A stretch of 64,000 nt of DNA from an uncultured Lentisphaeraceae bacterium (GTDB taxonomy: Bacteria > Verrucomicrobiota > Kiritimatiellia > RFP12 > UBA1067): positions 42,677-106,676 of the forward strand of contig CAZWQY010000004.1 of the NCBI GenBank assembly GCA_964636295.1, read 5' to 3'. A program made the translations under genes and the position numbers. Below the pieces are notes generated by a model. That model ran no database searches. It was given only the letters and a program-made list of their open reading frames with translations, and was not told the DNA's origin. Shown in pieces: positions 5,258-64,000 of this stretch. Each line of letters opens with the position of its first letter. Position 1 is the stretch's first letter.

Positions 5258-7205
<1,948 letters not shown>

Positions 7206-46309: not shown

Positions 46310-46310
46310 C

Positions 46311-46898: not shown

Positions 46899-46919
46899 AG
46901 ACAGTCACCTATTATGGAT

Positions 46920-47405: not shown

Positions 47406-47421
47406 TCCCTCGTCTCCACAC

Positions 47422-47455
47422 TCAAAAACAAGCGCGGGCCGTGAAAGCCCGCGCC
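47422..47455 (-). terminator. Intrinsic terminator after the HU gene
   Basis: Minus strand GCGCGGGC-TTTCACG-GCCCGCGC followed by TTGTTTTTG. Confidence 0.75.
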
Positions 47456-47485
47456 ACAGAAACGCACCTGCGTTTGCGCGAAGCC

Positions 47486-47797: not shown

Positions 47798-47967
47798 GTC
47801 GTGATCCTTATTCTGTGTCAGTATTGGCGCACATGAGAACCGCTCCCACATGCTTGGTGCGTAATATAGCAATATTTTCAGGGGTGCGCAAGGGGTGAAG
47901 TGAAAAAAGTCCAATAAAGACAGGGGCTTGGGCAACCTCGCACGTCTCCCCCCGTCCCGCGCGTTTT

Positions 47968-47976
47968 TGGTATAAT
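47968..47976 (+). promoter_or_regulatory. Extended -10 box TGGTATAAT, 7 nt before ftsH ATG (leaderless-type)
   Basis: gcgtttttGGTATAATctgcgccATGgca. Confidence 0.55.
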
Positions 47977-47983
47977 CTGCGCC

Positions 47984-49846
47984 ATGGCAAATCAGACGAA
48001 TCCGGCCTGGCGCTCGTGGCTCGTGATCGCCCTCATCGCGGTCGCGTTCTTCACGATGTACAAGGCCAACCCCAATCCCGAATCGACGAAGGAGCTGACG
48101 CTCCTCGAATTCTACCAGGCGATGGAGCAGAACAAGCTCGTCGAGCCAGTCACGCGCGTCATCGACCGCGACGACGGCGAGACGTTCCTCGTCGGCGAGG
48201 CCGAAACGGACGACCTCGACGACACGGGCGCGCCGAAGACCTACCGCTACCGCGTGCCGCTCGTCCCCGGCGAGAACGAGGCGACGATGAGCGACCTTCT
48301 CGAAAAGAGCGTCAAGGTCGTCGTGCGCGAACGCAAGAGCCCGTTCTCCCCGTTCGTCGTCCAGCTCCTCTTCTTCTTCGGCTTCATGTTCCTCTTCTAC
48401 TGGTTCTTCTACCGCCGCGTCGGCGGCGGGGGCGGGATGTTCAGCTTCGGCAAGTCGAAGGCGAAGATCCTGAACGGGAAGGAGGACAAGGCGAACAAGG
48501 TGACGTTCGCCGACGTCGCGGGCGTGGACGAGGCGAAGGAGGAGGTCGAGGAGATCGTCTCGTTCCTGAAGGATCCAAGCGCGTTCAAGAAGCTCGGCGG
48601 CCGCATTCCGAAGGGCGTGTTGCTCGTCGGCCCGCCCGGCACGGGCAAGACGCTCCTTGCCAAGGCCATCGCCGGCGAGGCGAAAGTCCCCTTCTTCGCC
48701 ATGAGCGGCAGCGACTTCGAGGAGATGTTCGTTGGCGTCGGCGCGAGCCGCATGCGCGACGTCTTCAGCGAGGCGAAGAAGCGCGCGCCTTGCATCGTCT
48801 TCATCGACGAGATCGACTCGATCGGCCAGAAGCGCACGGGCGCGGGCGCGCTCGGCGGCAACCACGCCTACGAGCAGACGCTGAACACGATGCTCGTCGA
48901 GATGGACGGCTTCGACGCGAACGAGGGCGTCATCGTCATCGCCGCGACGAACCGGCCGGACACGCTCGACTCGGCCCTCCTGCGCCCCGGCCGCTTCGAC
49001 CGTCAGGTCGTCGTCGAACTGCCGACCCTCAAAGGCCGCAAGGAGATCCTCGAACTCCACGGCAAGCGCATCACCTTCGCGCCCGACGCCGACCTCGACC
49101 GCGTCGCGCGCGGAACGCCCGGCTTCTCGGGCGCCGATCTCGCGAACCTCCTCAACGAGGCCGCGCTCCTCGCCGTCCGCAAGAAACTCGACGGCGTGGA
49201 CATGGCGACGCTCGACGAGGCGCGCGACAAGGTGATCTGGGGGCGCGAGCGCAAGTCGGCCGGCTACTCGCAGAAGGAGCGCGAGACGACGGCCTGGCAC
49301 GAGGCGGGCCACGCGCTCCTGCAGGTGCTCCTGCCCGACACGGATCCGCTCCACAAGGTGACGATCATTCCGCGCGGGCGCGCGCTCGGCGCGACGATGG
49401 CCCTCCCGGAGCGGGACGTCCTCAACCACACGAAGAACTATTTCCTCGCGGAGATGCGCCTGTGCTGCGGCGGCCGCATCGCGGAGGAGATGTTCACGGG
49501 CGACGTCTCGACCGGCGCGGCGCAGGACATCGCGCAGGCGACGCAGATTGCGCGCGAGATGATCTGCAAGTACGGCATGAGCGAGAAGTTCGGCTTCCAG
49601 GCGTTCATGGAGCCGTCGCAGTTCTCCGGCGGCGACCTGCCGCCCGCATTCAGCGAAGAGACGTCGCGCGAAATCGACGCGGAAGTGAAGCGTCTCATCG
49701 ACGCGGCCTACGCCGAATCGAAGCGCATCCTCGTGGAGAACCGCGAGACGCTCGAACGCCTCGCGAAAACGCTGATCGAGAAGGAGACGATGGACGGCCG
49801 CGACGTCGAGGAACTCGTCAAGGGTTCGAACAACGCCGCACCGTGA
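47984..49846 (+). CDS. ftsH: ATP-dependent zinc metalloprotease FtsH
   Basis: 620 aa; [18 protein letters not shown], zinc motif HEAGHAL. Confidence 0.97.
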
Positions 49847-52800
49847 CGCACTGCCCCGTCGCCGTCACGAGCAACGCGGCGGCGATGTGTGCGTCCGGCA
49901 GTCCCGTCAGCCGCGCGAGCGCGCGGCAATAGGCCTCCATCTGAGGCGCGTACTGCGCGCATAGCCGTTGCGCGAAGGCCGCGTCGCCCTCGCCGGCAGC
50001 CTTGGCGTTCGTCTTGAAGTCGTAAATCGTCGCCTGACGCGACGCGCCCACGCCCGTGAAGACGACGCGGTCAAACCGCCCCGACGCCCAGTGCGCGCCG
50101 TCGAAGAACTCGTAGCCTCGCTCACGCCAGACCGTCGCCTCTTCGGACGGCTTCACAAACGCCACGCGGAAACCGGGCGGCAATGTCGCCGCCGTCTCCG
50201 CATCGGCCCATTCAATCTTCTGATAGGCCGCATGCACCTCCAGCCCACGCTGCGCCGCCGCGCCGAAATCTCCGTCAAAGAGAGCCGCCGCGCGCAATCC
50301 CATCGCCCCTGACGTCGGCACGGCCGACGATGGCGTCGCGCGCACAAGAGCCTCCCGCCGCCGCGCCGTCGCGGCCCAGGCGACACGAGGCTTTTCTGCT
50401 TGGCTCGCCGCCGCTTCGACAATCGGAAACGCCGGCGCCTCGCCCGCGACGTAAGGCAGTTTCCGGTTGACGGCCGATACAATCAGATCGCGCATCAAGA
50501 GCCCCTGCGCATAGTCCTCCGGCTTCGAATCGTTCGGGAAAATAACAAAGAGCGACTTCTTCGAGCGCGTCAACGCCACGTAGTACGTCCGAAGCGACTC
50601 CATCAGCCGCGCGCTGCGCAGGTTTGCATAGGCGACCCGCGTCTTTGCGTTCAACGCCTCGCAGCCTTTCTTCAGATGGGGCAGTACCCAGTCGCCGCCG
50701 TCATAGAGCGGCGTCGAGACCGTCGGCGCGTCAATGGCCGCTGTCCCGCGTTGGCCTTCGAAGAGCGGCACGAAGACATGGTCAATGCCCAGCCCCTTCG
50801 AGCGGTGAATCGTCAAGATCCGAATGACGTCTGCCGACACGGCAATCTCCCGCCGCTGCGCGTCCGCCAAAAAGCGCACGAACCCGTCAACGCCGCCAAA
50901 CGATCCGCGCGCCTCGTAGACCACGCCCTTCTCCACAAGCTGCTTCAGCCGCTCGCACGAAAGCCCGCCCGGCAAAAGGCCGCCCTTCTCGCGCAGAACG
51001 CCGCAGAAGTCCTTCAGCGTCCGCGCCAGCCCCTGGCGCGTCAGGAGACGCGAGACGGTCGCCGAGACCGCCGCCGCCGTCGGGCAGGTCGGCAGAAGCA
51101 ATTGACGAACGGGGAAGAGGTCGTTCACCGTCCGCCAGGCGTAGCCATCCGCCGGATGGTCACCGAGCGTCAGCAACGCCAGCACGGCCTCGACCACCGG
51201 CAGGTCGTGGACGGGGCTCTTTCCCTCCCAGACGACAGGCAGCCCCTTCGCGCGCAAGTACTCGGCGACTTCAAGCCCCCGGTCGTTGTTCCGCACGAGA
51301 ATGCCGACCGTCTCCGCGCTGTGCGCGGCTTCGTGGCGAGCCCACAACGCCTGCACTTCCTCATGAAGCGCAGACAGGACGGGATCCTCCTCGCTGCTCG
51401 GAATCACCTTCGCGCCGATGACCTTGACGAAATCGGAGGCCTCATGCGAGACATGATCGACCCATCCCTCGGCCCAAGCGTCGACGGCGCCGTAGCAGGC
51501 GCACGGGATGATTCCGCCGCGAGAGATGCTGCCTCGCCCAAAGACCTGGTTCACGAACGCCGCGATGTTCGGCCCGTAGCGATGCGACTCCTTGAAGTCG
51601 CGCGCGCAGCCGGCAAACGCCTCCCACCCGGACAACTGCTCAAACGGCCGCGCGCTCGCGCCGCGCCACGTGTAGATGGACTGCTTGAGATCGCCGACGG
51701 CCATGGCCGACCGCGCCTCGCCCGCACGCCCCGCATTCGCCACCTCCTCCACGAGATCCCGCAGACACTTCCACTGCAAATCGCTCGTGTCCTGGAATTC
51801 GTCCAGGGCCCAGTGGTCGAACCGGGCATCAAAGCGGAACTGGACGTTCTGGATGTCAATGCCGCGCTGCCCCCGTTCCGACGAAAACGCCGTGAAGTCG
51901 CCGAACGTGAGCTTCCCCGTGCGCCGCGTCAGACGCTCGTAGGTCTCCTCAACGGCCGTCACGAGCGCGATCTTCGCCTGAACGACTTCCAGCCGCCGCT
52001 TCAGATAGAGGTTCATCACGTGACGGATTGCCGCGCGCACCGTCGCCGCGCCGTCCGCACCGCACGCGAACGTGTAGGGAACATTGTAATATGCGTAGTC
52101 GTAGGACGTCGCCGCCGGATTCGTCCAGAAGTGGAGCATCAAGTTCTTGACGCCGCCGCTCACGTCCAGGGGGGACGTCGATCCGTCATACGACTGGACG
52201 AACTGCACGAACTTCTCCTCGTAGGAGACGGCATTCTTGCGCCGAATCTCGTTCAGCGGAAGCCCCGACAGGTCGGGGCAGACGCTCGCCATCGGCACGT
52301 CCAGCGCCGCGCACATGCTTTCGACCGTCCACTCCCGACAGGCGGGATGGGCGACGACAAAGTTTCGCCACCCCGTCTTGTTCAGAATCATGCCAATCGC
52401 CGAAAGGCACGTGCGCGAGAAAGCCCCGTCCTTCGCCCGCCAGAACGCCTGGGCAATCGCCTCGCCCGCCCCGTCCGGCTTCGCCAACAGGGCGTGGACA
52501 GCCTCCTCGACCGCCTCGCTCTCGTCCATCTCGTCCAGAACCTCAACGGCGTTCTGAAAGCCCATCTCCATCGGAAAGTTTCGGACAATGCGGAGAATGA
52601 AGCTGTCGAGCGTCGCGATCGATCCCAAGTGCTGCGTCTCGACGAGCGTCCGCAACAGACGCCGAAAGTCGGCCGCGCCATGCGAAATGCCCTGCGCCTC
52701 AATCCACGCGAGCTTCGCCGCCGCATCCGGAACGCAGCCCCCCCGAAAGTCCGCCAGCAGCGTCTCCCACTCGCGCGCCGCCCCCGCCGCGTCCGTGGCC

Positions 52801-52985
52801 GCCGCACACAGCCGCATGAGGATCTTCGTGTAGATCTCCTGGGCGGCCGCGCGCGAAAACGTCAGCGCGACGATGGTCTTCGGATCAATCCGATCGATGA
52901 GCATCTGGCGGATGACGCGCGTCGCAAGCGCGTAGGTCTTGCCGGTTCCCGCCGACGCCTTGATGAGGCTGTTCGTCTCAATCAT
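49818..52985 (-). CDS. addA: UvrD-type helicase / PD-(D/E)XK nuclease, AddA-like
   Basis: 1055 aa; Walker A ASAGTGKTYAL; C-terminal nuclease motif ATIYDFKTN. Confidence 0.8.
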   Translation of the reverse strand: MIETNSLIKASAGTGKTYALATRVIRQMLIDRIDPKTIVALTFSRAAAQEIYTKILMRLCAAATDAAGAAREWETLLADFRGGCVPDAAAKLAWIEAQGISHGAADFRRLLRTLVETQHLGSIATLDSFILRIVRNFPMEMGFQNAVEVLDEMDESEAVEEAVHALLAKPDGAGEAIAQAFWRAKDGAFSRTCLSAIGMILNKTGWRNFVVAHPACREWTVESMCAALDVPMASVCPDLSGLPLNEIRRKNAVSYEEKFVQFVQSYDGSTSPLDVSGGVKNLMLHFWTNPAATSYDYAYYNVPYTFACGADGAATVRAAIRHVMNLYLKRRLEVVQAKIALVTAVEETYERLTRRTGKLTFGDFTAFSSERGQRGIDIQNVQFRFDARFDHWALDEFQDTSDLQWKCLRDLVEEVANAGRAGEARSAMAVGDLKQSIYTWRGASARPFEQLSGWEAFAGCARDFKESHRYGPNIAAFVNQVFGRGSISRGGIIPCACYGAVDAWAEGWVDHVSHEASDFVKVIGAKVIPSSEEDPVLSALHEEVQALWARHEAAHSAETVGILVRNNDRGLEVAEYLRAKGLPVVWEGKSPVHDLPVVEAVLALLTLGDHPADGYAWRTVNDLFPVRQLLLPTCPTAAAVSATVSRLLTRQGLARTLKDFCGVLREKGGLLPGGLSCERLKQLVEKGVVYEARGSFGGVDGFVRFLADAQRREIAVSADVIRILTIHRSKGLGIDHVFVPLFEGQRGTAAIDAPTVSTPLYDGGDWVLPHLKKGCEALNAKTRVAYANLRSARLMESLRTYYVALTRSKKSLFVIFPNDSKPEDYAQGLLMRDLIVSAVNRKLPYVAGEAPAFPIVEAAASQAEKPRVAWAATARRREALVRATPSSAVPTSGAMGLRAAALFDGDFGAAAQRGLEVHAAYQKIEWADAETAATLPPGFRVAFVKPSEEATVWRERGYEFFDGAHWASGRFDRVVFTGVGASRQATIYDFKTNAKAAGEGDAAFAQRLCAQYAPQMEAYCRALARLTGLPDAHIAAALLVTATGQCVTVRRCSNP

Positions 52986-55923
52986 GGAACGCCTCCAGTC
53001 TCCGCTCCTGCTCCTTCGCCCACTCCGTCCCGCCGAGATCCGTCTGCGGATCCGACACGAAAAGGCCCTTCAAGTTCCATTTCCATTCGTCCGTCGGACC
53101 CGGCGGCCAGAAGACGTTCTTCCCAATCAGCCCAACCGCCCGCCGCGCCGTCGCAAGAGACACCTCGACCGCCACGTCCGGCAACGGCTGAATCGCACAT
53201 TCCTCGTCCGTCGCCGCCAAGACGAAATAGGCATACGAAATCGCGGCAAACGGAATCTTCGGCTCCACGGCCGACAGGCATCGCCCGTACACGGGCAACT
53301 GGACGGACAGGACACGCTGCGCCACCTGCTGGGCCTTCGACATGCGGAACGTCGGATAGCCCATCATCTCCGCCATCCTCTCCTGCACCTCGGACTTCGC
53401 CGTAAAGACATGCCCCGCAAGCGATTTCTTGTCCCATGTCTTGTAGTCGATCACGCACCACGGCTTCTTGGCGTCTCCAATGTTCTCGTCCACGCGGTCG
53501 ATGTAGCCGTGAATGCGAAAGCCGAGTCCCAGCACGTCCAAATCTTTCGGAATCTCCCGTTCGGCCATCCGAATGCGCCAGCCCTGGCTCGCCCACTCCG
53601 CCTGCCGCGCCGCGAACAGATCAAGCCGCCCTTCCAGCGCGCGCAGCTGCAGATCGACGTTGAGCGTCATCCGCCCATACCGAACACGAATCGCCGGACA
53701 GATTTCCTCGCGGAAAAGCCGCCGAATCGCGTCCGCGTCCGTCAACTGATCATCACCGTTCGCGATCTGCCGACGGGCATACGCCTCCAACGCCGCATGG
53801 GCGAGCGTCCCGAAGTCATTGGCCTCCAGTTCCTGCTTGTCAGCATACGGCTCCATGCCAAGCCCGTTGGCCAGGAGATAGGTGAAGGGACACTTCACGT
53901 AGGCGTCGAGCGCGCTCGGCGAATAGTGTCCGACGGGCGCCAGCGTGTCCGGCAACGTCATCGGCCACTCGACGCGGCGGACGCGATCCGTCCGCTCTTC
54001 GGGCAAGTCGCCGAAGAGACTGCCAATGCGGCGGGCCAGCGCATCGTCCGCGCACAGGTAAAGCAGGCGGCTCGGACGGCAGATGTCGCCCGCGTCCGTG
54101 GCCCGCGCAACATACGCGCGCACGGCATGGGGCGCGTGCGAATCCAGAAGTTCCTTCAAGAGCCAGCTGTCACGCGCCAGCCGGTCAACGTTCGAAACAA
54201 GTCCGAGACGCTGACGAAGGCTGTCCGGCAAGAACGGATGCCCCACAACCGAGTCAGGCACCTTGCCCTCGTGAAGCCCAACCAGCGCAAGATGATCCGC
54301 CGCGCTCCAGGGCAGTTCCAGCCAGCCTTCCGTGCGAACGGCATCCGACGCGTCCGGCTCAAGCGAATAGACGGCCGCGTCCAGCATGCGGCGCGCGAGT
54401 GCCGCCCGTTCGGCGGCCGTCATCGGCAGGGCGGAGACAAACGGGCCTTCAAGCGCATCGAGGAAGTCCCGCGCCGCATCCGCCGCCGCCCGGAACTCCT
54501 GCCCGTCCGTTCCCGACGACAGACGGTGGCCGGCAAACGTCCAGCGCAGCATCGTGCGCAGAAATGCCGAAAGCGTTTCGCCTTCCCGCGCCGTGCGGAT
54601 TGTCTCGATCACGCGCTTCGCCTGTTCGCAGAAAGCCTGAAGCCGCGCCTTCCGAAAGGCCCGCAAGTCGGGATTGTCCGGGAATGTCGCCGACCACGGC
54701 ATTTCCGACGGAATGTAGGCGTTCTGCGCCACGTCCAGCCCCGCCAGCACCTGGGCGCGCGCCGATCCGAAAAGACCAAGCGCAGTCAACACATCATCGC
54801 TTCGGAAGAATGCGACAAACTCCTTCCACGGCAGCGTCTCGGCGGCATGCAAGACCATCAGGTTCTTGATCAGCCGCCCCAGCGACGATTGCACCAGACG
54901 ATGCCGTTCGGGGTTGTGGACGACATACCCCTGATTCAGGAACGCCGCCGCGAGGCCGTTGGAGAGATCCGCGTCGCACAGGCCCAAGGCCGGCAACGCC
55001 ATGCCGCTGGCGGCGGACGGGAAGTCCGAGGCCACCGTCCGCACGAGCGCCGAAACGTCGCTCGCCGAAACGATGTCCGCATCCGCGAGACGCGCCAACA
55101 CCGGATGCGCCGCGCCCGTCCAGCGCGTGGTGAGCGGCGCGCCCCAGACGCTGAACGCCGATGCCTCCGCAGGGTCAACATGCAGCAGCACCGTCAGTCT
55201 TGTCCCCGCCGCCTCCTGCTGTACCAGCACATCCTCCAAAACGCGAATCGGGTCAGCGAGCGCGGGAACGACAATCTCCTCGACGGACGACTCCACCAAA
55301 GCCGCCTGCGTCTTCGCTTCGTGAATGCGCTCCGTCGGATAGGCCAGTCCGTGCCCGTGCAGATACGCGAAGAATCCCGCCTCCAACGCGCCCAGCTGCT
55401 GCCAGCGACTTTGCTCGTCGCCAATCGCCGACTCCAGCAAATCCTTGGCAAGCGGCTCGACGTCGCGCATCAAGAGTCCGCGCCCCGCCAACACGCGCCA
55501 AATGTCCGCCAGCTGATCCAACAGCGCAAAGCGCGCCGTCAGATCCTCGAAGGCCTCCGGACGAACGAGGCGATCCAGCTTCAGGATTTCCGCGCGATGC
55601 GTTTTCACGTACTGCTGGAACGCGGCCGCAATCTCACACGGCGTCGCCTCGCGCAGGGTCTCGTCCGCCGAACGCACGAGTTGCATCGGCGACACGACGC
55701 GCGGCGGCACGACGCCAACGCCCGAAAAGCGGCGCGCGATCGCGAGACGCAGATTGCGCCCCGACTGCGCCGTCGGCACGACGACCAGCACATGGTCGAG
55801 CGTTCGCGCGCCCTCGGACGAGAGGCGGACCCGCCCGTTCCCTTCATAAGACCCCGTGCCGCACAACCAGTCGGCGACTTCATCGACCAACTTCCGCCTC
55901 GGATCCAAGAACTCCCTATTCAT
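52978..55923 (-). CDS. addB: PD-(D/E)XK nuclease family protein, AddB-like
   Basis: MNREFLDPRRKLVDEVADWL...; C-terminal HGYIDRVDE...WCVIDYKTW nuclease motif; start moved from 56142; 8-nt overlap with addA. Confidence 0.7.
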   Translation of the reverse strand: MNREFLDPRRKLVDEVADWLCGTGSYEGNGRVRLSSEGARTLDHVLVVVPTAQSGRNLRLAIARRFSGVGVVPPRVVSPMQLVRSADETLREATPCEIAAAFQQYVKTHRAEILKLDRLVRPEAFEDLTARFALLDQLADIWRVLAGRGLLMRDVEPLAKDLLESAIGDEQSRWQQLGALEAGFFAYLHGHGLAYPTERIHEAKTQAALVESSVEEIVVPALADPIRVLEDVLVQQEAAGTRLTVLLHVDPAEASAFSVWGAPLTTRWTGAAHPVLARLADADIVSASDVSALVRTVASDFPSAASGMALPALGLCDADLSNGLAAAFLNQGYVVHNPERHRLVQSSLGRLIKNLMVLHAAETLPWKEFVAFFRSDDVLTALGLFGSARAQVLAGLDVAQNAYIPSEMPWSATFPDNPDLRAFRKARLQAFCEQAKRVIETIRTAREGETLSAFLRTMLRWTFAGHRLSSGTDGQEFRAAADAARDFLDALEGPFVSALPMTAAERAALARRMLDAAVYSLEPDASDAVRTEGWLELPWSAADHLALVGLHEGKVPDSVVGHPFLPDSLRQRLGLVSNVDRLARDSWLLKELLDSHAPHAVRAYVARATDAGDICRPSRLLYLCADDALARRIGSLFGDLPEERTDRVRRVEWPMTLPDTLAPVGHYSPSALDAYVKCPFTYLLANGLGMEPYADKQELEANDFGTLAHAALEAYARRQIANGDDQLTDADAIRRLFREEICPAIRVRYGRMTLNVDLQLRALEGRLDLFAARQAEWASQGWRIRMAEREIPKDLDVLGLGFRIHGYIDRVDENIGDAKKPWCVIDYKTWDKKSLAGHVFTAKSEVQERMAEMMGYPTFRMSKAQQVAQRVLSVQLPVYGRCLSAVEPKIPFAAISYAYFVLAATDEECAIQPLPDVAVEVSLATARRAVGLIGKNVFWPPGPTDEWKWNLKGLFVSDPQTDLGGTEWAKEQERRLEAFHD

Positions 55924-55963
55924 CTCCAGCCCCTTTCGATCCGCCGTCCGTTTGCGCAGAAAC

Positions 55964-56602
55964 CTACTGCACCGCGTGTTCCAGCTCCGACGGACTCCGA
56001 CAAATCGCGTCCGCCCGCGCCAGTTCCTCCGGGCGCCCATAGCCCCAGGCAACGCCAATCGAGCGAACGCCGTTCGCGGCGGCCGCCTCGAAGTCGTTCC
56101 CCGTGTCGCCCACAAGGACGCAGTCTGCCGGCTCGGCCGCATAGGTCGTCAGGACACGGCGCAGCAACTCTGGCTTGCGCACCTTCGGCAACGTCATGTC
56201 GCCGGCATAGATGCCATCGAAAATCGACTCCCAGCCGAAATGCCGCGCCATCGCCGTCGCACCGACAAACCGCTTGTTGGTGACGATCGCGAGCGTCCGC
56301 CCCTCGGCCTTCAGCCGCCGCACTACGTCCAAGACGCCGGGATATTCGCGCGTCAGCGGAAAACCGTCCCGATCGTAGTGGTCTGCAAAGCCGACGCGAA
56401 TCGCGTCCGCCAGCTCGGGCGTGAAGCGATCGGGGAAGAGCTGCCGCGTCATCTCGTCAATCGGCGGGCCCGCGACGAACTTCGCGTCAAACAAAGGGCA
56501 GTCCAGCCCCAGGTCGGACAACGTTGCCTTCCAGGCCCTGCGGATGTCGCCATCCGTATCGGCCAACGTCCCGTCCAAGTCGAAGAAGACAAACTGTTTC
56601 AT
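55964..56602 (-). CDS. gph: HAD-family phosphoglycolate phosphatase-like hydrolase
   Basis: 212 aa; MKQFVFFDLDGTLADT motif I. Confidence 0.75.
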   Translation of the reverse strand: MKQFVFFDLDGTLADTDGDIRRAWKATLSDLGLDCPLFDAKFVAGPPIDEMTRQLFPDRFTPELADAIRVGFADHYDRDGFPLTREYPGVLDVVRRLKAEGRTLAIVTNKRFVGATAMARHFGWESIFDGIYAGDMTLPKVRKPELLRRVLTTYAAEPADCVLVGDTGNDFEAAAANGVRSIGVAWGYGRPEELARADAICRSPSELEHAVQ

Positions 56603-56607
56603 GACGG

Positions 56608-57045
56608 TCAGACCGCCGCGGCGGCGACTTCCTTTTCGGAGAGCGTCAGGAAACCGGCCGCCGCAAGGGCCGTCTCCGCCTTCGCGTTGTCGTCGAAGCG
56701 GAAGACGAGGACGGCCTTCTCGCCCTTGTGGAACGCGAAGGCATAGCTGTATTCAATGTTCGCGCCAGCCGCATCAAGGGCCGTCATGACTTCGGCCATG
56801 CCACCCGGACGATCAGGCACGCAGACGGCGACGACCTCGCGCACATTGACGACGTGTCCCTTCTCGGCGAGCGTCGTCTTGGCCTTTTCGTGGTCATCGA
56901 CAATCAGGCGCACAATGCCGAAATCGCTCGTGTCCGCGAGCGACAGCGTCGCGAGGTTGATGTCCGCGTCCGCAAGATCACGGCAGATCTGCGAGAGCTG
57001 TCCGGGCTTGTTCTGAAGAAAAATCGAGATTTGACGAATGTGCAT
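56608..57045 (-). CDS. ACT domain-containing protein
   Basis: 145 aa; two ACT-like halves (ISIFLQNKPGQLSQICRDLADADINL...). Confidence 0.75.
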   Translation of the reverse strand: MHIRQISIFLQNKPGQLSQICRDLADADINLATLSLADTSDFGIVRLIVDDHEKAKTTLAEKGHVVNVREVVAVCVPDRPGGMAEVMTALDAAGANIEYSYAFAFHKGEKAVLVFRFDDNAKAETALAAAGFLTLSEKEVAAAAV

Positions 57046-57075
57046 AGGATGAGGTGGAGGTGTGAGGTGGAAAGG

Positions 57076-58194
57076 TCAGTTGAACAAAAACTCGACGACG
57101 TCGCCGTCCTTCATCTCGTATTCCTTGCCTTCCGGACGGAGGACGCCATGCTCACGCGCGCCGGCTTCGCCGCCGTACTTGACGTAGTCCTCGTAGGCGA
57201 CGACCTGCGCACGGATGAAGCCCTTCTCGAAGTCCGTGTGGATGACGCCCGCGCACTTCGGGGCCTTCCAACCCTTGCGGAACGTCCACGCGCGCGACTC
57301 CTTCGGACCCGCCGTGAGGAAGCTCGCCAACCCCAGCGTCTCGTAGGCGAGCTTGATCGTCCGGTCGAGCGAACTCTCCGAAAGGCCATAGCTCTCCAGG
57401 AACTCCTTCGCCTCGGCGTCCGTCAGTCCCGCGAGGTCGGCCTCCATCTGCGCGCAGATGACGACGCAGTCGCAGCCCGCCTTCGCCGCGTAGCCCTTCA
57501 GCGCGGCCACGTGCGCGTTGCCCTCGCCCGTCACGTTGTCGTCCGCCACGTTCGCGCAGTAGATGACCTTCTTGTCGGTGAGGAAATGGAGTTCCTTCAA
57601 GACGTTCAGAATCGGGTCGCCGTCCGCGCGCGGGAACGCGCGCACGGGCTTCCCCTCCTCCAAATGCTTGAGAAGCGCGGCGCACGCCTCGGCCTCCGGA
57701 CGGAGCGGCGGCTTCGCCTGCGCCTCCTTCTTCACGCGGTCGTAGCGCTTCTGAAGCTGCTCCATGTCGGCGAGAATCAGCTCCGTCTCGATGACCTCGG
57801 CATCGCCGACGGGGTCAATCGGCGCGGACTTGTTGCCGCCCTCCTGCACATGGATGATGTCGTCGTTCTCGAAGCAGCGGACGACGTGCAGGATCGCGTC
57901 GCATTCGCGGATGTTCGCGAGGAACTTGTTGCCGAGGCCCTCGCCCTTGGACGCGCCCTTGACGAGTCCCGCGATGTCGGTGAACTCGACCGTCGCGCGA
58001 ATGACCTGCTCGCTCTTCGCCATTTTTGCAAGCGTGTCCAGCCGCGCGTCGGCGACTTCGACAATCGCCGAATTCGGCTCGATCGTGCAGAACGGATAGT
58101 TCTCCGCCGCCGCCTGCTGCTTCTTCGTAAGCGCGTTGAAGAGCGTCGACTTGCCAACGTTCGGCAGACCGACAATGCCAACTGAAAGTCCCAT
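57076..58194 (-). CDS. ychF: Ribosome-binding ATPase YchF
   Basis: 372 aa; MGLSVGIVGLPNVGKSTLFNALT. Confidence 0.96.
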   Translation of the reverse strand: MGLSVGIVGLPNVGKSTLFNALTKKQQAAAENYPFCTIEPNSAIVEVADARLDTLAKMAKSEQVIRATVEFTDIAGLVKGASKGEGLGNKFLANIRECDAILHVVRCFENDDIIHVQEGGNKSAPIDPVGDAEVIETELILADMEQLQKRYDRVKKEAQAKPPLRPEAEACAALLKHLEEGKPVRAFPRADGDPILNVLKELHFLTDKKVIYCANVADDNVTGEGNAHVAALKGYAAKAGCDCVVICAQMEADLAGLTDAEAKEFLESYGLSESSLDRTIKLAYETLGLASFLTAGPKESRAWTFRKGWKAPKCAGVIHTDFEKGFIRAQVVAYEDYVKYGGEAGAREHGVLRPEGKEYEMKDGDVVEFLFN

Positions 58195-58230
58195 TCGTAT
58201 CCTCCTAGACGAAATTTTCGATTTGAAATC

Positions 58231-58986
58231 CTACGCCAAGCGCTTTTCCTTGATGGTGGGCGCCGGCGGCTTGTTGTAGACGCGCGAATTCGGCGGGACG
58301 GACGCGATGATCCAGACGCTGCCGCCAATCTCCGAGTCATGGCCAATCGTCGTGTTGCCGCCCAAGATCGTCGCGCCCGCATAGATGACGACGTTGTCCT
58401 CGACATTCGGATGGCGCTTGATGCCCTTGACGAGCGCACCCGTCGCCGGATCCTTGTCAAACGAGAGCGCGCCCAGCGTAACGCCCTGATAGAGCTTCAC
58501 GTTGTTGCCGATGACGCACGTCTCGCCGATGACGACCCCCGTGCCATGGTCGATGAAGAACCGCTCGCCAATCGCCGCGCCCGGATGGATGTCGATACCC
58601 GTCTTTGAGTGCGCGAGCTCTGACATGATGCGCGGAATGATCGGCACCTTCAAGACATAAAGTTCATGCGCCAGACGATGAATCGTCACGGCATAGAGGC
58701 CCGGATAGGCCATCACGACCTCCATCGGACTCGTCGCCGCCGGATCGCCCTCGTAGGCCGCCTGCACGTCCGTCCCGACCAGCCGCTTCACCTCCGGAAG
58801 CCGCGCCAAAAACGCCGCGACAATCGCCTTCGCGTCACGGCCGGGACAGAGCAGCGCGACCTCGCGCTCCAGTTCGGCCGCCATCAGGGCCGCCATGTCC
58901 GTCGCACCCAGCTCGCCGTAGACGCACGGGTGCAGCAACGCCAATCCCCGCTTCACGATCAGCGCAATTCTCTGTGGCAATGTCAT
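58231..58986 (-). CDS. cysE: Serine O-acetyltransferase
   Basis: Hexapeptide repeats ...GIDIHPGAAIGERFFIDHGTGVVIGETCVIGNNVKLYQGVTLG...; start moved from 59037 to ATG 58986 because the extension covers the promoter. Confidence 0.88.
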   Translation of the reverse strand: MTLPQRIALIVKRGLALLHPCVYGELGATDMAALMAAELEREVALLCPGRDAKAIVAAFLARLPEVKRLVGTDVQAAYEGDPAATSPMEVVMAYPGLYAVTIHRLAHELYVLKVPIIPRIMSELAHSKTGIDIHPGAAIGERFFIDHGTGVVIGETCVIGNNVKLYQGVTLGALSFDKDPATGALVKGIKRHPNVEDNVVIYAGATILGGNTTIGHDSEIGGSVWIIASVPPNSRVYNKPPAPTIKEKRLA

Positions 58987-58996
58987 TTCAGCGCGT

Positions 58997-59005
58997 ATTA
59001 TACCA
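58997..59005 (-). promoter_or_regulatory. Extended -10 box TGGTATAAT, 10 nt from cysE ATG
   Basis: Minus strand cccccttttGGTATAATacgcgctgaaATGaca. Confidence 0.5.
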
Positions 59006-59103
59006 AAAGGGGGCTGATAAGGAATGACGCGCGCCAACAGACATCACGGCTAACTTCACCAGACGGCACACCGGCGATTTGGCATAATGGACGAGCACAG
59101 GAG
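58999..59103. repeat. Direct repeat copy 1 (bidirectional promoter cassette), left border of island
   Basis: Shares TATACCAAAAGGGGGC and the 27-mer TCACCAGACGGCACACCGGCGATTTGG (59056..59082) with copy 2; contains TGGCATAAT (59080..59088) facing plus. Confidence 0.85.
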
Positions 59104-59136
59104 GAATCGTGGGGACAGGCCCCAGGGGGAGGGCTG

Positions 59137-59265
59137 AAACCACGAATTTCACGAATCTCACGAATGAAGGTGGAGGTGAAAATCAACCACGGATTAACAC
59201 AGATTGGCACGGATTCGTGCCCATTCGTGAAATTCGTGGATAGACAATCGCGGGGACAGGCCCCA
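59137..59265. mobile_element. CACGAAT/ATTCGTG family element (copy E3), no cargo
   Basis: CCACGAATTTCACGAATCTCACGAATG...CCACGGATTAACACAGATTGGCACGGATTCGTGCCCATTCGTGAAATTCGTGGATAGACAATCGCGGGGACAGGCCCC. Confidence 0.6.
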
Positions 59266-59284
59266 TCAAATCTTAGCCACGGTT

Positions 59285-60760
59285 TTATGGGCACACAACC
59301 TGTTCGAGCGCACGCACTTCTTCGTCCGTCAATTCTGCGAAAAAGTGACGCTTCGCCTCAGACAGCCTTCCTCGATTGTTTTTCACAAAGAGGATGAACT
59401 GATTGGCCTTTTTCTCCGGCAAATCCACAATCTGCCGCATCCCTTTACGTATGCGATCATAATTGACAAGATAGTCCAGTTCCGTTCTCCATTCCGAACG
59501 AATGGTCTCGACAATCAGCCGCTGAAAATTTTCGACGATTTCCGTGAAATCAATGTAGCGGTAGAAATCTGCACTGTCGTTCTTCACCGTTATCTCACCA
59601 TTGCCGTCGATCTCATAGTCAAGTCGCTGCATGACACGCCTTGAAAAGGTCTCCAGCAGACGGTCATAGACATCCGGATGCTTCTGCAAAACCGCCGAAA
59701 TGGGGAAAATCATATCCTTCGGCGTAAAGCCCGTCTGCGACAGGATGAAGTGCATAAGATAGCGGTGCAACCGTCCATTGCCGTCGTCAAACGGATGGAT
59801 GAAGACGAATGCAAAGCTCATGATGGCGGCCAAGACAACAGGATCGACAGCACTTCTCATCAAGGTCTCCAATGTACGCAAGAACCCGGACATGAGATCT
59901 TCGACATCCTGTGGACGTGCGGCGATAAAATGCACCTTCTCGCAGCCCGGCGCAACCGTCTCACCGACATACACTTGGTCTTGACGCCATCCTGCTTGGC
60001 GATAACGCGTCTCCACAACCTGATTCCGCAAATCGACAAGCGTTTCCTTTGTCATCTGGCTGTCGGAAATTCGTTGAAGTATGGACACAAAGGACTGCAT
60101 CCGCTTTTGATCCGGCGTTTCGCGTTCAATCGCGAACGACGAGCGGGTCTCTTTGACATAGAGATAGCGAATCGCACGATAAAGCAATTCGGGCGAATAA
60201 CGCTTTAACAATGTGTCCGACATTCGCTTGAGACGATCTGCGGAGTATTTGTCGATGATGTCCGTACGACGCACGAGCGGCGAAAAATCTCGGTCTCCGA
60301 GGAGATTGTTGACCAACCGCATTCGGCGAATGCGAGTCGATACGGAAATCGGGCGTACAATCTGATGTTTCTCATCGACCAGCAACGAGTACGACCCCTG
60401 CTTCAAATCCGGGAGTGGCAGCCTCTGACCAGTCAACAGTTCGTAAAGCGCCCACACCCGACGACTGAACACGCCAGTCGGATGAATTCTGACGAGGTCT
60501 ACAACATCGGACTGTGAAACAACCGAGAAAAGAGCCTTGAGAACTTCGAGATTAACCCCTTCATGTTTAAGGGCGAACAACAAATGCCCTTGCCAGGAAT
60601 TCTCCACCGTGATTCGACCAATGGGGAAATAGACATCCACCCCATCGTTTTGGCGATGGACTTCAAGCACGGATTTATCGGTCAGATGGGCACGAGACTG
60701 CAATTCGCACACATTCAACTTGAAATTTTCAATCAAGTATAAATAACCGATGGATTTCAT
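59285..60760 (-). CDS. Fic family protein (AMPylase-type)
   Basis: Fic motif HPFDDGNGRLHR; start moved from 60892 to ATG 60760 (MKSIGYLYLIENF...), 7 nt after TGCTATAAT (60768..60776); AT-richer than the backbone. Confidence 0.88.
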   Translation of the reverse strand: MKSIGYLYLIENFKLNVCELQSRAHLTDKSVLEVHRQNDGVDVYFPIGRITVENSWQGHLLFALKHEGVNLEVLKALFSVVSQSDVVDLVRIHPTGVFSRRVWALYELLTGQRLPLPDLKQGSYSLLVDEKHQIVRPISVSTRIRRMRLVNNLLGDRDFSPLVRRTDIIDKYSADRLKRMSDTLLKRYSPELLYRAIRYLYVKETRSSFAIERETPDQKRMQSFVSILQRISDSQMTKETLVDLRNQVVETRYRQAGWRQDQVYVGETVAPGCEKVHFIAARPQDVEDLMSGFLRTLETLMRSAVDPVVLAAIMSFAFVFIHPFDDGNGRLHRYLMHFILSQTGFTPKDMIFPISAVLQKHPDVYDRLLETFSRRVMQRLDYEIDGNGEITVKNDSADFYRYIDFTEIVENFQRLIVETIRSEWRTELDYLVNYDRIRKGMRQIVDLPEKKANQFILFVKNNRGRLSEAKRHFFAELTDEEVRALEQVVCP

Positions 60761-60804
60761 GCCGTTGATTATAGCAAAATTATTTGTTCTAAACAGCCAC
60801 CCTT

Positions 60805-60870
60805 TTGCAAAAACTCTTACGCCGTTGCAAAAACCTTTACATCGAGGCACTTTGCCGCAAAAACTATTAC
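60805..60870. repeat. Three phased direct repeats TTGC(N)AAAAAC-N-TTAC upstream of the fic promoter
   Basis: TTGCAAAAACTCTTAC (60805), TTGCAAAAACCTTTAC (60825), TTGCCGCAAAAACTATTAC (60852); core spacing 20 and 30 nt. Confidence 0.75.
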
Positions 60871-60950
60871 GTCTTGCGGAATCTGTCCCCAAGGGAGGAG
60901 AAGAGGAGACCTCACCCCTCCGCCTTGTCCACGGTAGCCAACCGTTGTTT

Positions 60951-61062
60951 AACCACGAATTTCACGGATTCGCACGGATTTGCGGGAATCCTTCAAAATA
61001 AATCCATTTGATTTGTGATGATTCGTAAGATTCGTGGATAGGCAATCGTGGGGACAGGCCCC
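60951..61062. mobile_element. CACGAAT/ATTCGTG family element (copy E4), no cargo
   Basis: AACCACGAATTTCACGGATTCGCACGGATTT...GATTCGTAAGATTCGTGGATAGGCAATCGTGGGGACAGGCCCC; the terminal ~32 nt are near-identical to the E3 terminus. Confidence 0.6.
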
Positions 61063-61123
61063 AAGGATTTCCCGCCAGGATCTGTCCCCAAGGTGGGGCG
61101 AGGGCGAGGAACGACCAAGCCCG

Positions 61124-61292
61124 CTACTGCTCTTCGGTGACGCGCAGAATCTCCTTCACGCTCGTCACGCCCTTGAAGACCTTCGCCCAGCCGTCTTCGC
61201 GCAGCGTCGTCATGCCCTTCGCAAGCGAGAGGTTGCGGAACTTCCTTTCGGCAGTCGGGACAGAGGCGACGGCAGAGACGCTGCCCCATCAC
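61124..61292 (-). pseudogene. 3' remnant of a GspE/PilB-type secretion ATPase gene (internal deletion plus frameshift)
   Basis: One frame gives GQRLCRRLCPDCRKEVPQP; the next gives LAKGMTTLREDGWAKVFKGVTSVKEILRVTEEQ* (the canonical GspE/PilB C-terminus); about 70 residues that normally separate them are missing. Confidence 0.65.
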
Positions 61293-61367
61293 GCCCGCGA
61301 CGGCGGACGCAATTTTTACAAGTCACCCACGCCCCACACGACCGCGCCCGATTTTGATATAATTCGC

Positions 61368-61554
61368 CCTGTCCTTCGGGCTGCCGAAGGAACTATAGGT
61401 CGGGAACTGACGCGGCGCACTGCCACACTCCACCCCGCGACCGTCTTTTCTCTGTAGCATCGACGCTACACGCTGTTCAATCGAAATACTGGTACTATTT
61501 CACCTTGGGAACGGCATGTAAGTTGAGATGCGCCCTTTGGGCGCGTTTTCTCTT
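61368..61554 (+). ncRNA. Candidate ~185-nt small RNA bounded by a promoter and an intrinsic terminator
   Basis: TGATATAAT at 61355..61363; hairpins TCCTTCGG-GCTG-CCGAAGGA (61372..61391) and GTAGC-ATCGAC-GCTAC; terminator GCGCCC-TTT-GGGCGC + GTTTTCTCTT (61530..61554); no credible ORF. Confidence 0.35.
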
Positions 61555-61596
61555 CGTGCATTCCCATAGGCCTGTACCAGGGCTTCGATTGAGTGC

Positions 61597-62910
61597 ATGA
61601 ACAGGAAATGCGCTCTTTTCATGCATCGGACGTCCCGGCGGCAGGTTGTCGCAAAGGAGGTCTCGGATGTGCAGGCGATTGTGCGGGAGGGTTTCCGATG
61701 GATGTTCACCGTCCTAACTGGCGTTGCGTATTCCGAACTGGGTATGTGCGAACACAAAGGAGATGTCAATGTCTCGCGGCATCTTGGCGTGGCCAGCCGG
61801 GTTAACCTTGGCAGTTACTATACGCCCGCCAAATATGTCCACATGGTCGGCGAATGGCTACTTGAACAGGGCATTGGTTCGGGATGGACAATTGCCGACC
61901 TCTCTTGTGGGTATGGGGCTTTCTTTGAACTTTCAGAAACCAAGGGCCTTCGCAAATGCCGCTACATAGGAAACGACATTGACCCTGTCGCCGTCAAGAA
62001 TGCACGGAAATACTTCCCGTATGTTGAACTCAGCGAGGGTAATGCGCTTTTTCGCGTTTCCCGAAAACGGTTTGGATTTCAGCCCGACGAGCGTATCGTC
62101 ATCGTCGGGAATCCGCCGTACAATGACACGACATCGCAGGCCGGACAGAGCCTCAAGACGGACTCCATTCAGATTGACGCAGATTTGAAGACGCGAGACC
62201 TCGGAATGTCTTCGCTGTTGGCCTATGACAAGATTCAGGCGGACTACGTGGCGGTTCTCCACCCGTTGTCCTATCTGATCAAGAAGCAAAACTTTTCTGC
62301 CGCACAGACGTTCTTCTCGAATTACGCGCTTGTCAAGTATATCGTGTTCTCAAGCAGGGAGTTCGAAGGGACATCAAGGGCTGTGAATTTCCCCGTCATT
62401 GTTGCCCTCTACCGACGAGCGGAGGGGCATGGCCTTTCCTATGAAGATGTCCGAAGGATGTGGTTTGAGACGGTGGAGGAAAACAGGTTCTCTCTTTCTG
62501 GATTCGATTATGTCACGGACGAAATCCGAAAGTATCCAGGGAAACAGAGATATCATCCAGAAATTCTGTTCTACACGCTTCGAGACATTAATGCCTTGCG
62601 TCGTAGCCAGACGTTTCTTGTGCGGCGAATGCCGAATGCCGTGGATGTCGATCCGACAAAACTTGCCTACTACTGTTACATCGACTGCTTCAAGAGATTC
62701 GCGGACATTCCATACTATCTCGGAAATTTCAATGTCCCGTTCATTCGCGACGAATTCGCGAGCATCAAAGACGATGTCGTACGGATTGCGAAATACGCGC
62801 ATCCAAATGTCTTCGGGGAATCGACAAAGCCGGGACACAAGACTTATGAACACGTTCGCGAATACATCTCAAAAAGCATAAAAGGAAAGGAATGCCTCCA
62901 TGCAGACTGA
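61597..62910 (+). CDS. N6-adenine DNA methyltransferase, gamma class (TaqI/Eco57I-like)
   Basis: GSYYTP, motif I DLSCGYGAFF, motif IV VGNPPY; true start probably internal (e.g. ATG 61702) because the first ~35 codons are Arg-rich and follow a terminator. Confidence 0.8.
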   Translation: MNRKCALFMHRTSRRQVVAKEVSDVQAIVREGFRWMFTVLTGVAYSELGMCEHKGDVNVSRHLGVASRVNLGSYYTPAKYVHMVGEWLLEQGIGSGWTIADLSCGYGAFFELSETKGLRKCRYIGNDIDPVAVKNARKYFPYVELSEGNALFRVSRKRFGFQPDERIVIVGNPPYNDTTSQAGQSLKTDSIQIDADLKTRDLGMSSLLAYDKIQADYVAVLHPLSYLIKKQNFSAAQTFFSNYALVKYIVFSSREFEGTSRAVNFPVIVALYRRAEGHGLSYEDVRRMWFETVEENRFSLSGFDYVTDEIRKYPGKQRYHPEILFYTLRDINALRRSQTFLVRRMPNAVDVDPTKLAYYCYIDCFKRFADIPYYLGNFNVPFIRDEFASIKDDVVRIAKYAHPNVFGESTKPGHKTYEHVREYISKSIKGKECLHAD

Positions 62911-63670
62911 AGAAGCAAAGGTCGTCAACACAGAAGAGAACCTCTTCGTCAACCTTCCGCTGACACGGCCGACAGGGAAAATTCGCGTCAAGCAGCGCAG
63001 TTTCTTTTCCGAGTATGGCGTACCCGTCGCACCTCGGAAAGCCACGATGTCCCAGTCGTGCTATGTCGAATGGCAGATTGGATATGATTTGCTTGCGTCC
63101 GCAGAGAGCAAGGGGAAGACAAGCCTCGCGGACAGGACATTCCGAAATTACAAAGGCGAGACAAAATATGCCTATGAACTGGGAGAGGTGTTACAGTATG
63201 CCTATGTGCGTGGACTGATCTGTGACGACGAAATCAAGACCTGCTTTGAGATGATCCGTCGCGTTGCAAACGAATCGACATTCGAGGAAACGGCAGCGAT
63301 CTGCCGTACGAACCCACGCGAAAGGATAGTTAATGGGCTGGCATTCTATGAGATGCAAGTCTCCTATCCCTTGTTTGTTCATCGGTTTGGCCCCTACGAA
63401 ATCTTCGCGGAGATTATGGTGAGAGAGAAGCAACGAGCTGTTGGCACACAGGCAATGCTGTATGTCTGTCTCCCGATTACGACGCTGAAGTTTCCTCGTC
63501 CCGTCCTGGGACGGACATTGGACACCAAAGAGTGCGCCAAGTGGATTGTCGGAAGAGAGGAGGCCGCGCTGTCCTTGGAGATGTTCCGCGTGTTTGGCAT
63601 GCTCTCGCCGAAACATCGCCATGACGTGATGGCGATTCTGATGATGCTTTTCCCGAATGTCTTGAGCTGA
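62900..63670 (+). CDS. Hypothetical 256-aa protein overlapping the methyltransferase stop by 11 nt (candidate partner or endonuclease)
   Basis: AT-rich ORF with protein-like composition; no motif recognised with confidence. Confidence 0.55.
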   Translation: MQTEEAKVVNTEENLFVNLPLTRPTGKIRVKQRSFFSEYGVPVAPRKATMSQSCYVEWQIGYDLLASAESKGKTSLADRTFRNYKGETKYAYELGEVLQYAYVRGLICDDEIKTCFEMIRRVANESTFEETAAICRTNPRERIVNGLAFYEMQVSYPLFVHRFGPYEIFAEIMVREKQRAVGTQAMLYVCLPITTLKFPRPVLGRTLDTKECAKWIVGREEAALSLEMFRVFGMLSPKHRHDVMAILMMLFPNVLS

Positions 63671-63710
63671 ACGGACGTTCTACGGCCTCGTTTCGTGAGC
63701 AAACGTCTGC

Positions 63711-63857
63711 CTATTCTATGTTGGAGACGGCGTCTTTCAAGTCGCCGATGAGCGACTTGAATTCGTCCGTGTATTGGATGCCGTCGGAGACGATTTTCCC
63801 TTCTGCATAGAGGGTTAGAAGGCGTTCGGACAAAATCAGCAGATTGTATTCGTTCAT
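63711..63857 (-). CDS. Hypothetical 48-aa protein
   Basis: MNEYNLLILSERLLTLYAEGKIVSDGIQYTDEFKSLIGDLKDAVSNIE; AAGGAAA RBS and a TGGTATACT box within repeat copy 2; ORF-track start 63977 rejected. Confidence 0.45.
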   Translation of the reverse strand: MNEYNLLILSERLLTLYAEGKIVSDGIQYTDEFKSLIGDLKDAVSNIE

Positions 63858-63881
63858 TTGAATTTCCTTGACGGCGGACAG

Positions 63882-63983
63882 TATACCAAAAGGGGGCAGG
63901 AAGGCGTGGCGCGCGACGGACATCACGGCCAACCTCACCAGACGGCACACCGGCGATTTGGTATAATGGGCGAACACGGAAGG
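63882..63983. repeat. Direct repeat copy 2 (bidirectional promoter cassette), right border of island
   Basis: TATACCAAAAGGGGGC...TCACCAGACGGCACACCGGCGATTTGG (63935..63961), then TGGTATAAT (63959..63967) facing plus toward the window edge. Confidence 0.85.
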
Positions 63984-64000
63984 TTTGAGTGTTTGGCGGG

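Follow-up and report, generated by a model that had tools for sequence, protein, structure and literature searches.

A stretch of 64 kb of DNA (hereafter, the window) from a gut Kiritimatiellia (Kiritimatiellota) bacterium, an organism seen in metagenome assemblies, was analyzed. Upstream of cysE, the gene for serine acetyltransferase, the window holds an island of low guanine-cytosine (GC) content, which lies between two direct copies of a ~105-bp two-way promoter region. These copies are called here R1 (left) and R2 (right), or R when no distinction is needed. The right part of the island is a restriction-modification module of the PabI type, and we consider how this module, its neighbors, and the two copies of R may have come to their present arrangement. 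The features that bear on this question are as follows (lengths of proteins are in amino acids, aa).

58231..58986, minus strand: cysE, serine acetyltransferase, 251 aa, with Hexapep and SATase_N Pfam matches
58997-59007, minus strand: -10 box of cysE, TTTGGTATAAT, at the left edge of R1
58999-59103 (105 nt): R1, the left copy, in direct orientation relative to R2
59078-59088, plus strand: orphan box TTTGGCATAAT in R1, pointing into the 3' end of the fic gene, antisense to it
61334..63946, plus strand: discrete PabI-type Type II module, consisting of promoter, RNA leader, methyltransferase gene, nuclease gene, and a convergent 48-aa gene with its promoter region; homologous blocks occur elsewhere
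61352..61363, plus strand: module promoter box TTTTGATATAAT
61453..61626, plus strand: conserved structured RNA of ~175 nt, between the module promoter (61352-61363) and the start of the methyltransferase gene (61669)
61669..62910, plus strand: DNA amino-methyltransferase, 413 aa, with a GTG start after the ribosome-binding site AAAGGAGG
62900..63670, plus strand: R.PabI-family restriction endonuclease, 256 aa, overlapping the methyltransferase gene by 11 nt
63711..63857, minus strand: p48, a 48-aa gene, convergent with the nuclease gene
63880-63890, minus strand: -10 box of p48, TTTGGTATACT, at the left edge of R2
63882-63983 (102 nt): R2, the right copy, in direct orientation relative to R1
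63957-63967, plus strand: promoter box TTTGGTATAAT of an 851-aa gene, in R2

The global alignment of R1 and R2 contained 88 identical columns out of 106, with 13 mismatches and 5 gap columns. Identity is 83% by this count, or 87% once the 5 gap columns are dropped. The longest exact run shared by the copies is the 27-mer TCACCAGACGGCACACCGGCGATTTGG. When up to 3 mismatches were allowed, this 27-mer was found at 2 sites in the 64 kb, namely R1 and R2 (chance expectation 0.00), and TATACCAAAAGGGGGC was found exactly at R1 and R2 only. The alignment bears out the original prediction, made from the sequence of the window, that two ~100-bp copies in direct orientation share long identical runs with small indels between them. 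A search for further copies of the 27-mer, which that prediction had proposed, ended with the same two sites, its scope being the 64-kb window. When the 8 kb of the right flank were added, R was still present in two copies in ~72 kb. Exact scans for the 27-mer gave 0 matches in JGI metagenome contigs and 0 in IMG/VR, and a protein search with an open reading frame crossing R2, aimed at copies of R called as genes, returned only the small-gene clusters of the PabI module. The ~70 nt between the boxes of R are common to R1, R2, and one type of related module (the L112 type, described below) only. The two copies are separated by 4.78 kb, in which the GC content is ~0.46-0.55 (about 50%), compared with 0.60-0.68 in the flanks and 64% in the genome; the interior is AT-richer than its surroundings, as had been stated.

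The box TTTGGTATAAT is the general -10 promoter consensus of this genome. It has 11 matches in the 64 kb where 0.03 would be expected, and 6 of the 11 are inside the island or bound it. The wider consensus can be written as T(T/G)TGGTATAAT, an extended -10 box, with examples at 12866, 15787, 27810, 35554, 47966, and 60768. The TTTGGTATAAT box usually stands 7-10 nt ahead of the ATG. Because the ATG follows the box so closely, the spacing would imply that leaderless or near-leaderless mRNAs are widespread in this Kiritimatiellia genome. Both copies of R have outward-facing matches to the consensus at the predicted sites, copy 1 facing cysE and copy 2 facing the 48-aa gene. Since both ends of R bear such boxes, "bidirectional promoter cassette", the term used in the original prediction, seems a fair description of R. 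The gene served by the right plus-facing box was to be sought beyond the window, and it was found there: an 851-aa gene starts at window-equivalent 64196, ~225 nt past the plus box, and its product has a signal-peptide-like N-terminus and no Pfam match. To the right of this gene are a 245-aa gene and then an AraC-type regulator, and to the left of the island are cysE and ychF.

The 256-aa protein, previously listed as an unknown, is in fact an R.PabI-family endonuclease. It matches PF09522 with an E-value of 7e-37 and 126.6 bits against a cut-off of 25, and among PDB sequences it matches 7cfa (E 5.7e-46) and 2dvy (E 1.5e-20); it has 271 homologues. The gene directly upstream encodes a methyltransferase with motif I xCGxGxF and motif IV NPPY, whose profile matches were weak and PrmC-like in NCBIfam, with none in Pfam. 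The island holds homologues of both the restriction and the modification gene, and the adjacent NPPY methyltransferase is the candidate cognate enzyme, which would protect the GTAC-type site of PabI systems. Neither Pfam nor NCBIfam has a match for the product of p48, whose homologues in a set of 5.8 billion proteins fall into three clusters, all of them from these modules; a 25-mer conserved at the start of the 48-aa gene had 0 matches in JGI metagenomes. A gene of 48-49 aa accompanies the methyltransferase and nuclease genes in the window and in the L112-, L123-, and L131-type modules, and none was called in L137/L138 (L numbers denote the contigs compared).

The 2.6-kb module was found in other Kiritimatiellia contigs, with 66-87% identity and with differing flanks. 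Its layout there is the TTTTGATATAAT promoter, a leader of ~300 nt, the methyltransferase gene, the nuclease gene, and the convergent gene of 48-49 aa. The version with 87% nucleotide identity (L108/L109, L112-L114) has two left flanks and one left boundary, at 61334-61337. The homology of the 77% version (L123-L130) runs from 61347 to 63857. In the 66% version (L131-L136), the -10 box forms the left edge of the module, the right edge falls 136 nt upstream of the small gene, and there are two right flanks, an EamA transporter gene or a tyrosine-recombinase element. At least three module versions, in several flank contexts, share a left boundary within 61334-61347. No direct repeats were found around the module in the L108/L109, L112-L114, L123-L130, and L131-L136 contigs. 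Taken together, these comparisons indicate that the PabI module is a discrete mobile unit. As a separate observation, the 66% module of L132 (2935-7561) and L136 directly adjoins a block with a tyrosine-recombinase (Phage_integrase) gene, and the module may sometimes be carried on integrative elements. A candidate pairing of the left end of the module with the right half of R as terminal repeats was rejected, because the promoter consensus and the GC-rich context suffice to account for the likeness.

The segment between the module promoter and the methyltransferase gene is conserved as an RNA structure. Among five module versions, 16 of the 62 predicted pairs show compensatory double changes. 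This count was reached in 0 of 500 shuffles, and slid controls gave 0-3. Across module versions that are 66-87% identical, the leader is more conserved than the coding region. The RNA is placed on the plus strand because of its G-U pairs, and a TTTT/TTTTT indel shows that the segment is not coding. A search of 58000-64000 against Rfam 15 at E ≤ 1 gave no match, and the RNA motif TGTAGCATCRACGCTACACG had 0 matches in IMG/VR. According to the covariation, what had been proposed as a candidate small RNA is in fact a leader of the methyltransferase gene with a conserved structure. In this RNA, PabI-type restriction-modification modules may have a new cis-regulatory element. Such a leader could regulate restriction-modification expression, and it is maybe more novel than the repeats.

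The module versions also bear on the question of which copy of R is the original. In the 87% version, homology runs past the small gene and through its promoter into R2, as far as ~63946-63951, and in L112-L114, whose right flank differs, the module runs on without a break into the counterpart of the left ~65 nt of R2. Because the homology enters R2 in this way, the left ~65 nt of R would be the module's own p48 upstream region. To judge from the 66% version, it is normal for 100-136 nt ahead of the small gene to belong to the module. The 851-aa gene has its promoter in the right third of R2. Since the left ~65 nt are native to p48 and travel with the closest module version, R2 looks like the original and R1 like a secondary copy, and we infer that the copying ran from R2 to R1. 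R1 has both parts, so it would be a copy of the complete junction region. The idea that R as a whole goes back to the ancestor of the module family was dropped, with z ≤ 2.2 in the 77% and 66% versions.

A diverged lineage (L019/L020, L121/L122; 2.4-5%), represented by short Logan contigs, also has the order cysE-R1-fic. Its R1 (L019/L121) differs from that of the window at four sites. All four agree with R2, and the states of the window R1 at these sites are GC-to-AT changes. The composite of L019 and L121 (12-nt overlap, two samples, one study) has a 48-nt exact run with R2, which would explain why k = 31 assemblies break there. Because R1 of the diverged lineage is nearer to R2, the two copies would have come from one sequence, would be older than the split of the strains, and would have drifted since; such strain comparisons with Logan contigs rest on short fragments. 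In a three-way comparison with the L112 type, R1 and R2 were nearer to each other than either was to L112, and a 3-nt deletion was specific to R2. The right side of R2 varies as well. In L118/L119, whose module is 97.7% identical, window-equivalent 63929-67523 (L001 11030-14624) is missing. The segment missing in L118 (1-2177) and L119 consists of the right part of R2 and the 851-aa and 245-aa genes, and the upstream region of p48 is joined to that of the AraC gene, with no microhomology seen at the joint. Because the L112 type still shares CCAACCT...GACGGC beyond this joint, the L118 arrangement would be a deletion.

The other side of R1 was compared with relatives at cysE, whose orthologues in related Kiritimatiellia are 92-98% identical. 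In a sister lineage (cysE protein 97.6% identical), the gene order is groES-groEL-uvrB-cysE-ychF, and the 3' end of uvrB contains the cysE promoter TTTGGTATAATACGCGTTGAAATG. The TTTGGTATAATACGCGTTGAAATG box and the leader are conserved in more distant relatives too. In the window, uvrB and groEL are at 3181-6892. Because uvrB is directly upstream of cysE in the relatives and 53 kb from it in the window, the joint upstream of cysE is a rearrangement breakpoint. R1 is chimeric at this point: it is R2-like through ...CCCCCTTTTGGTATA / ...GCCCCCTTTTGGTATA and cysE-like from TTTGGTATAATACGCG. The two homologies overlap by 9 nt, and these 9 nt are the TTTGGTATA box that the two promoters share. The homology to the sister-lineage cysE promoter ends at TTTGG and the homology to R2 ends at TATA, so the joint of R1 with cysE lies inside TTTGGTATA. 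Such an overlap is the signature of a crossover in the shared promoter box.

Some further differences in gene order were seen around these genes. The longer sister order is groESL-uvrB-cysE-ychF-ACT-HAD-ftsH, and the window at 47984-58986 extends from ftsH to cysE. In the window genome, the HAD gene and ftsH are separated by an inserted AddB/AddA-like pair (a PDDEXK_1 nuclease and a UvrD-type helicase). Here uvrB has a different 3' end, after which comes a DUF5107/TPR gene. An 846-aa gene downstream of uvrB was considered as a paralogue of the 851-aa gene, and no such relation was found.

An empty site, in which cysE would be joined to the 851-aa gene through a single copy of R, had been proposed as a check. 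Exact-protein look-ups of cysE, the R.PabI nuclease, the 851-aa protein, and their close variants gave no such joint. All long contigs with an identical cysE, nuclease, or 851-aa protein carry the full island, and the same-species contigs all have both repeats and the same content; they are a small sample from few cohorts, and an empty site may still exist. None of the 80 related-species cysE loci listed had R, the island, or the 851-aa gene beside cysE, and R was also absent near cysE in 6 sister-lineage loci. Related and sister species have uvrB-cysE or other neighbors there.

One sister-lineage contig provides a parallel at the same place. L101 (3888-9927) has an unrelated 6-kb insert between uvrB and cysE, which encodes an AraC-type regulator, a protein of the FGE-sulfatase family (PF03781), a metallophosphoesterase, and two unknowns, and which has on either side a diverged ~33-bp direct repeat of the uvrB 3' end. 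Five empty-site contigs (L102-L106) show two alleles that are sharply different within those 33 bp. One allele is the left repeat copy of L101 and the other is the right copy, which suggests that the insert was lost repeatedly by recombination between the diverged flanking repeats. As to the proposal that the present island could excise by recombination between its repeats, no excision was observed for this island, and the match of the L101 empty-site alleles to the left and right copies makes it plausible. On this reading of L101, the proposed process does act at this site in this clade. The site upstream of cysE has repeatedly gained and lost inserts in two sister lineages.

The part of the island to the left of the module has the following features; MITE stands for miniature inverted-repeat transposable element.

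59105..59265: CACGAAT MITE-like element 1, with a body of 121 bp (59125-59245)
59285..60760, minus strand: Fic/DOC family gene, toxin-like, 491 aa, PF02661, E 1.9e-16
60768-60778: own -10 box of fic
60878..61100: CACGAAT MITE-like element 2, oriented like element 1, with associated short repeats
61127..61243, minus strand: C-terminal remnant of a GspE/PilB-type secretion ATPase, ~38 aa, with host-like GC

The fic product has the Fic motif HPFDDGNGRLHR at residue 322 with HPFxDGNGRxxR intact, which places it in the Fic/DOC family. Three ~20-nt direct repeats (TTGCAAAAACYYTTACRYCG) at 60805-60874, with spacing of 20 and 30 nt, stand just upstream of the fic box and may be operator sites. Element 1 has 17-bp perfect terminal inverted repeats (59140-59156 and 59223-59239), and its body sits between 20-bp direct repeats AATCGYGGGGACAGGCCCCA. 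In the diverged-lineage contigs L121 and L122 this body is missing, and a single 20-mer AATCATGGGGACTGACCCCA remains. Both elements are of a CACGRAT-rich MITE-like family with 17-bp terminal inverted repeats, and a third, more diverged element is found outside the island at ~20990-21180. The translation of the GspE/PilB remnant matches the C-termini of PilF/PilB/GspE among PDB sequences (E 8e-5), so that the gspE/pilB remnant named in the original prediction is confirmed. The parts of the island vary independently, which supports its description as a mosaic. Gene tables with Pfam showed no integrase or transposase in the island or in 8-10 kb on each side, and a scan found no tRNA or transfer-messenger RNA (tmRNA) gene in 45000-64000 of the window or in the 8 kb further right; the predicted lack of integrase, transposase, and tRNA holds in this range. 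The plasmid and phage collections gave only short matches, to the Fic active-site region.

The path that we prefer, with about even confidence in it, begins with R2 as the original and passes through a tandem duplication and then a deletion at TTTGGTATA boxes. The island would be a patchwork of low-GC accessory (defence-type) parts that vary independently, namely fic bracketed by MITE-like elements, the gspE/pilB stub, and the PabI module. R would be the region in which the promoters of the 48-aa gene and the right-hand 851-aa gene stand back to back. A local tandem duplication (amplification) of the island, or of its left part, would have produced the joint of the right end of R with the fic flank. 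The TTTGGTATA boxes of cysE and of p48 in the upstream copy have the same orientation, and a deletion between them would then have left only R1, fused to cysE. What precedes the cysE -10 box would now come from R1, whose rightward box would be orphaned and antisense to fic. The amplification of restriction-modification complexes by way of flanking long repeats is documented in work that is cited in PMC2853133. By this account, the repeats are by-products of recombination and not recombinase sites, and they are still substrates for RecA-dependent deletion or amplification. Several observations weigh against it. The left part of R is next to the module in one other version only (the L112 type), and R showed no significant similarity to what lies ahead of the small gene in the 77% and 66% versions (z ≤ 2.2). 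No clear microhomology is seen at the right joint of R1 (GGAGG|AATCG). Genomes with an empty site, a tandem copy, or an intermediate form were not found, so the path is drawn from its end-points. The activity of the four boxes is deduced from the consensus, and the count of two copies of R refers to ~72 kb.

Other explanations start from different ages or natures of R. It is possible, and to us unlikely, that cysE and the 851-aa gene once stood back to back around a single R, and that a 4.8-kb insert duplicated this 105-bp intergenic region, as in the long target duplications of the Nobusato and Furuta class. The restriction and methyltransferase genes, an insert within the published size limit of <20 kb, repeats >30 bp, and the lack of mobility genes fit the published criteria (PMC2853133), and the 6-kb insert of the sister lineage at the same cysE-upstream locus has ~33-bp target duplications and real empty sites. 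However, the island has no empty site among the sequences searched, and related species have no R near cysE. The left part of R beside the module in another context would need a later transfer that carried flank DNA, and other module versions bring their own small-gene upstream region. The edge of the duplication would also have to fall exactly in the cysE -10 hexamer and recreate a working p48 box. A Campbell-type integration, in which a circular island with one R recombined with an R that pre-existed at cysE, would make both copies hybrids of donor and recipient. This would account for the 13-17% divergence of the copies without a long residence time, and the sister-lineage repeat copies around the 6-kb insert are indeed different alleles, but the prior R at cysE is left without an origin. 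L019/L121 already have the island, and their R1 differs by ordinary point changes that fit divergence in place. We regard such an integration as improbable. Both explanations differ from the duplication-and-deletion path mainly in which copy is older.

The copies might instead be attachment (att) repeats of a site-specific recombinase, left by an integrase island or a prophage remnant, and the original prediction had offered an att-like integration scar. Direct repeats do bound a low-GC island, and the distant module version of L132 and L136 stands beside a tyrosine-recombinase gene. Against this, neither the island nor the 8-10 kb on either side has an integrase, a transposase, or a tRNA, and neither IMG/VR nor GenBank phages gave a match. 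The repeats are long, 83-87% alike with indels, and take in two promoters and a part of the module, which owns the left ~65 nt of R2; no empty site was found. Because recombinase and tRNA are lacking, the repeats are imperfect with indels, and phage matches are absent, site-specific integration is very unlikely, and we give it an almost negligible probability; the att-like scar is not upheld. That R is a dispersed multi-copy promoter or a repetitive extragenic palindromic (REP)-like element, with the island between two copies by chance, is highly improbable. Both ends of R match the genome-wide -10 consensus, but only two copies occur in ~72 kb, with none in the 80 related-species loci listed, the 6 sister loci, or the JGI metagenome or viral contigs. 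The original prediction had also raised promoter-mediated recombination. What stands of it is that the joint of R1 and cysE lies in TTTGGTATA and that several module edges fall a few nt upstream of -10 boxes; selection for cassettes that keep a promoter explains the edges equally well. Promoters in these Kiritimatiellia consist of hardly more than a TTTGGTATAAT box close to the start codon. In a stronger form of the idea, which we think has a low probability, the TTTGGTATAAT boxes would be recurrent recombination points at which promoter-bounded cassettes (the PabI module, the 851-aa gene pair, and the 6-kb insert of the sister lineage) are captured, duplicated, and lost upstream of cysE without a recombinase. 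The further idea, also quite unlikely, is that the long direct repeats would be working intermediates of an integrase-free cassette-exchange site. One clear chimeric joint and some module edges near boxes speak for crossovers in boxes, and promoter selection would also yield such edges.

Several known systems may be compared with this locus. Integrase-mediated genomic islands with att repeats are likewise low-GC islands with direct repeats beside a housekeeping gene. Unlike them, the present island lacks both a recombinase at its ends (10 kb on each side) and a tRNA or tmRNA target, its repeats are ~105 bp long and imperfect with 5 gap columns, and no excised or empty form was seen. As in the cassette capture of integrons, unrelated cassettes gather by a promoter, and the site upstream of cysE differs in two sister lineages, whereas here there is no integrase, there are no attC-like sites, and the cassettes have their own promoters and mixed orientations. 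The PabI family, with R.PabI of Pyrococcus abyssi (PDB 2dvy; PMC1874622), resembles the module in that a gene for a PF09522 nuclease overlaps an amino-methyltransferase gene and that the unit acts as a mobile element across compared genomes. The present module differs in its source, which is gut Kiritimatiellia, in its ~175-nt covarying RNA leader, and in the convergent gene of 48-49 aa in most versions. No description of the leader or of this small gene in PabI systems was found, and the Rfam search gave no match.

The closest known kind is that of restriction-modification genes with long direct repeats (Nobusato 2000; Furuta, Abe and Kobayashi 2010, PMC2853133). In this class, as here, a Type II pair of restriction and modification genes lies in a short (<20 kb) low-GC insert without integrase or transposase, and the flanking repeats far exceed the target duplications of transposons and could support deletion or amplification. 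With regard to mobility genes and multi-copy repeats, which the published work considers, no mobility genes are nearby, R has two copies in ~72 kb, and two MITE-like elements are inside the island. The present case differs from the published ones in that no empty-site genome aligns once with the repeat, and the repeat is partly module-owned rather than target sequence and makes up a complete two-way promoter region. Identity between the copies is 83-87%, compared with mostly >93% in the published tables, and the insert additionally holds fic, a gene stub, and MITE-like elements. The nuclease is of a known family, and there is nothing out of the ordinary in Fic genes or MITEs; the case belongs to this known class and is not a new kind of mobile element. 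What is unusual is that the repeat is a whole two-way promoter region and partly module-owned, that cysE stands behind the duplicated copy, and that the site turns over in sister lineages. The locus adds an example of the PabI family, from a little-studied gut phylum, to the long-direct-repeat class, and the site upstream of cysE is a convenient natural locus at which the integrase-independent gain and loss of defence genes can be followed in metagenomes.

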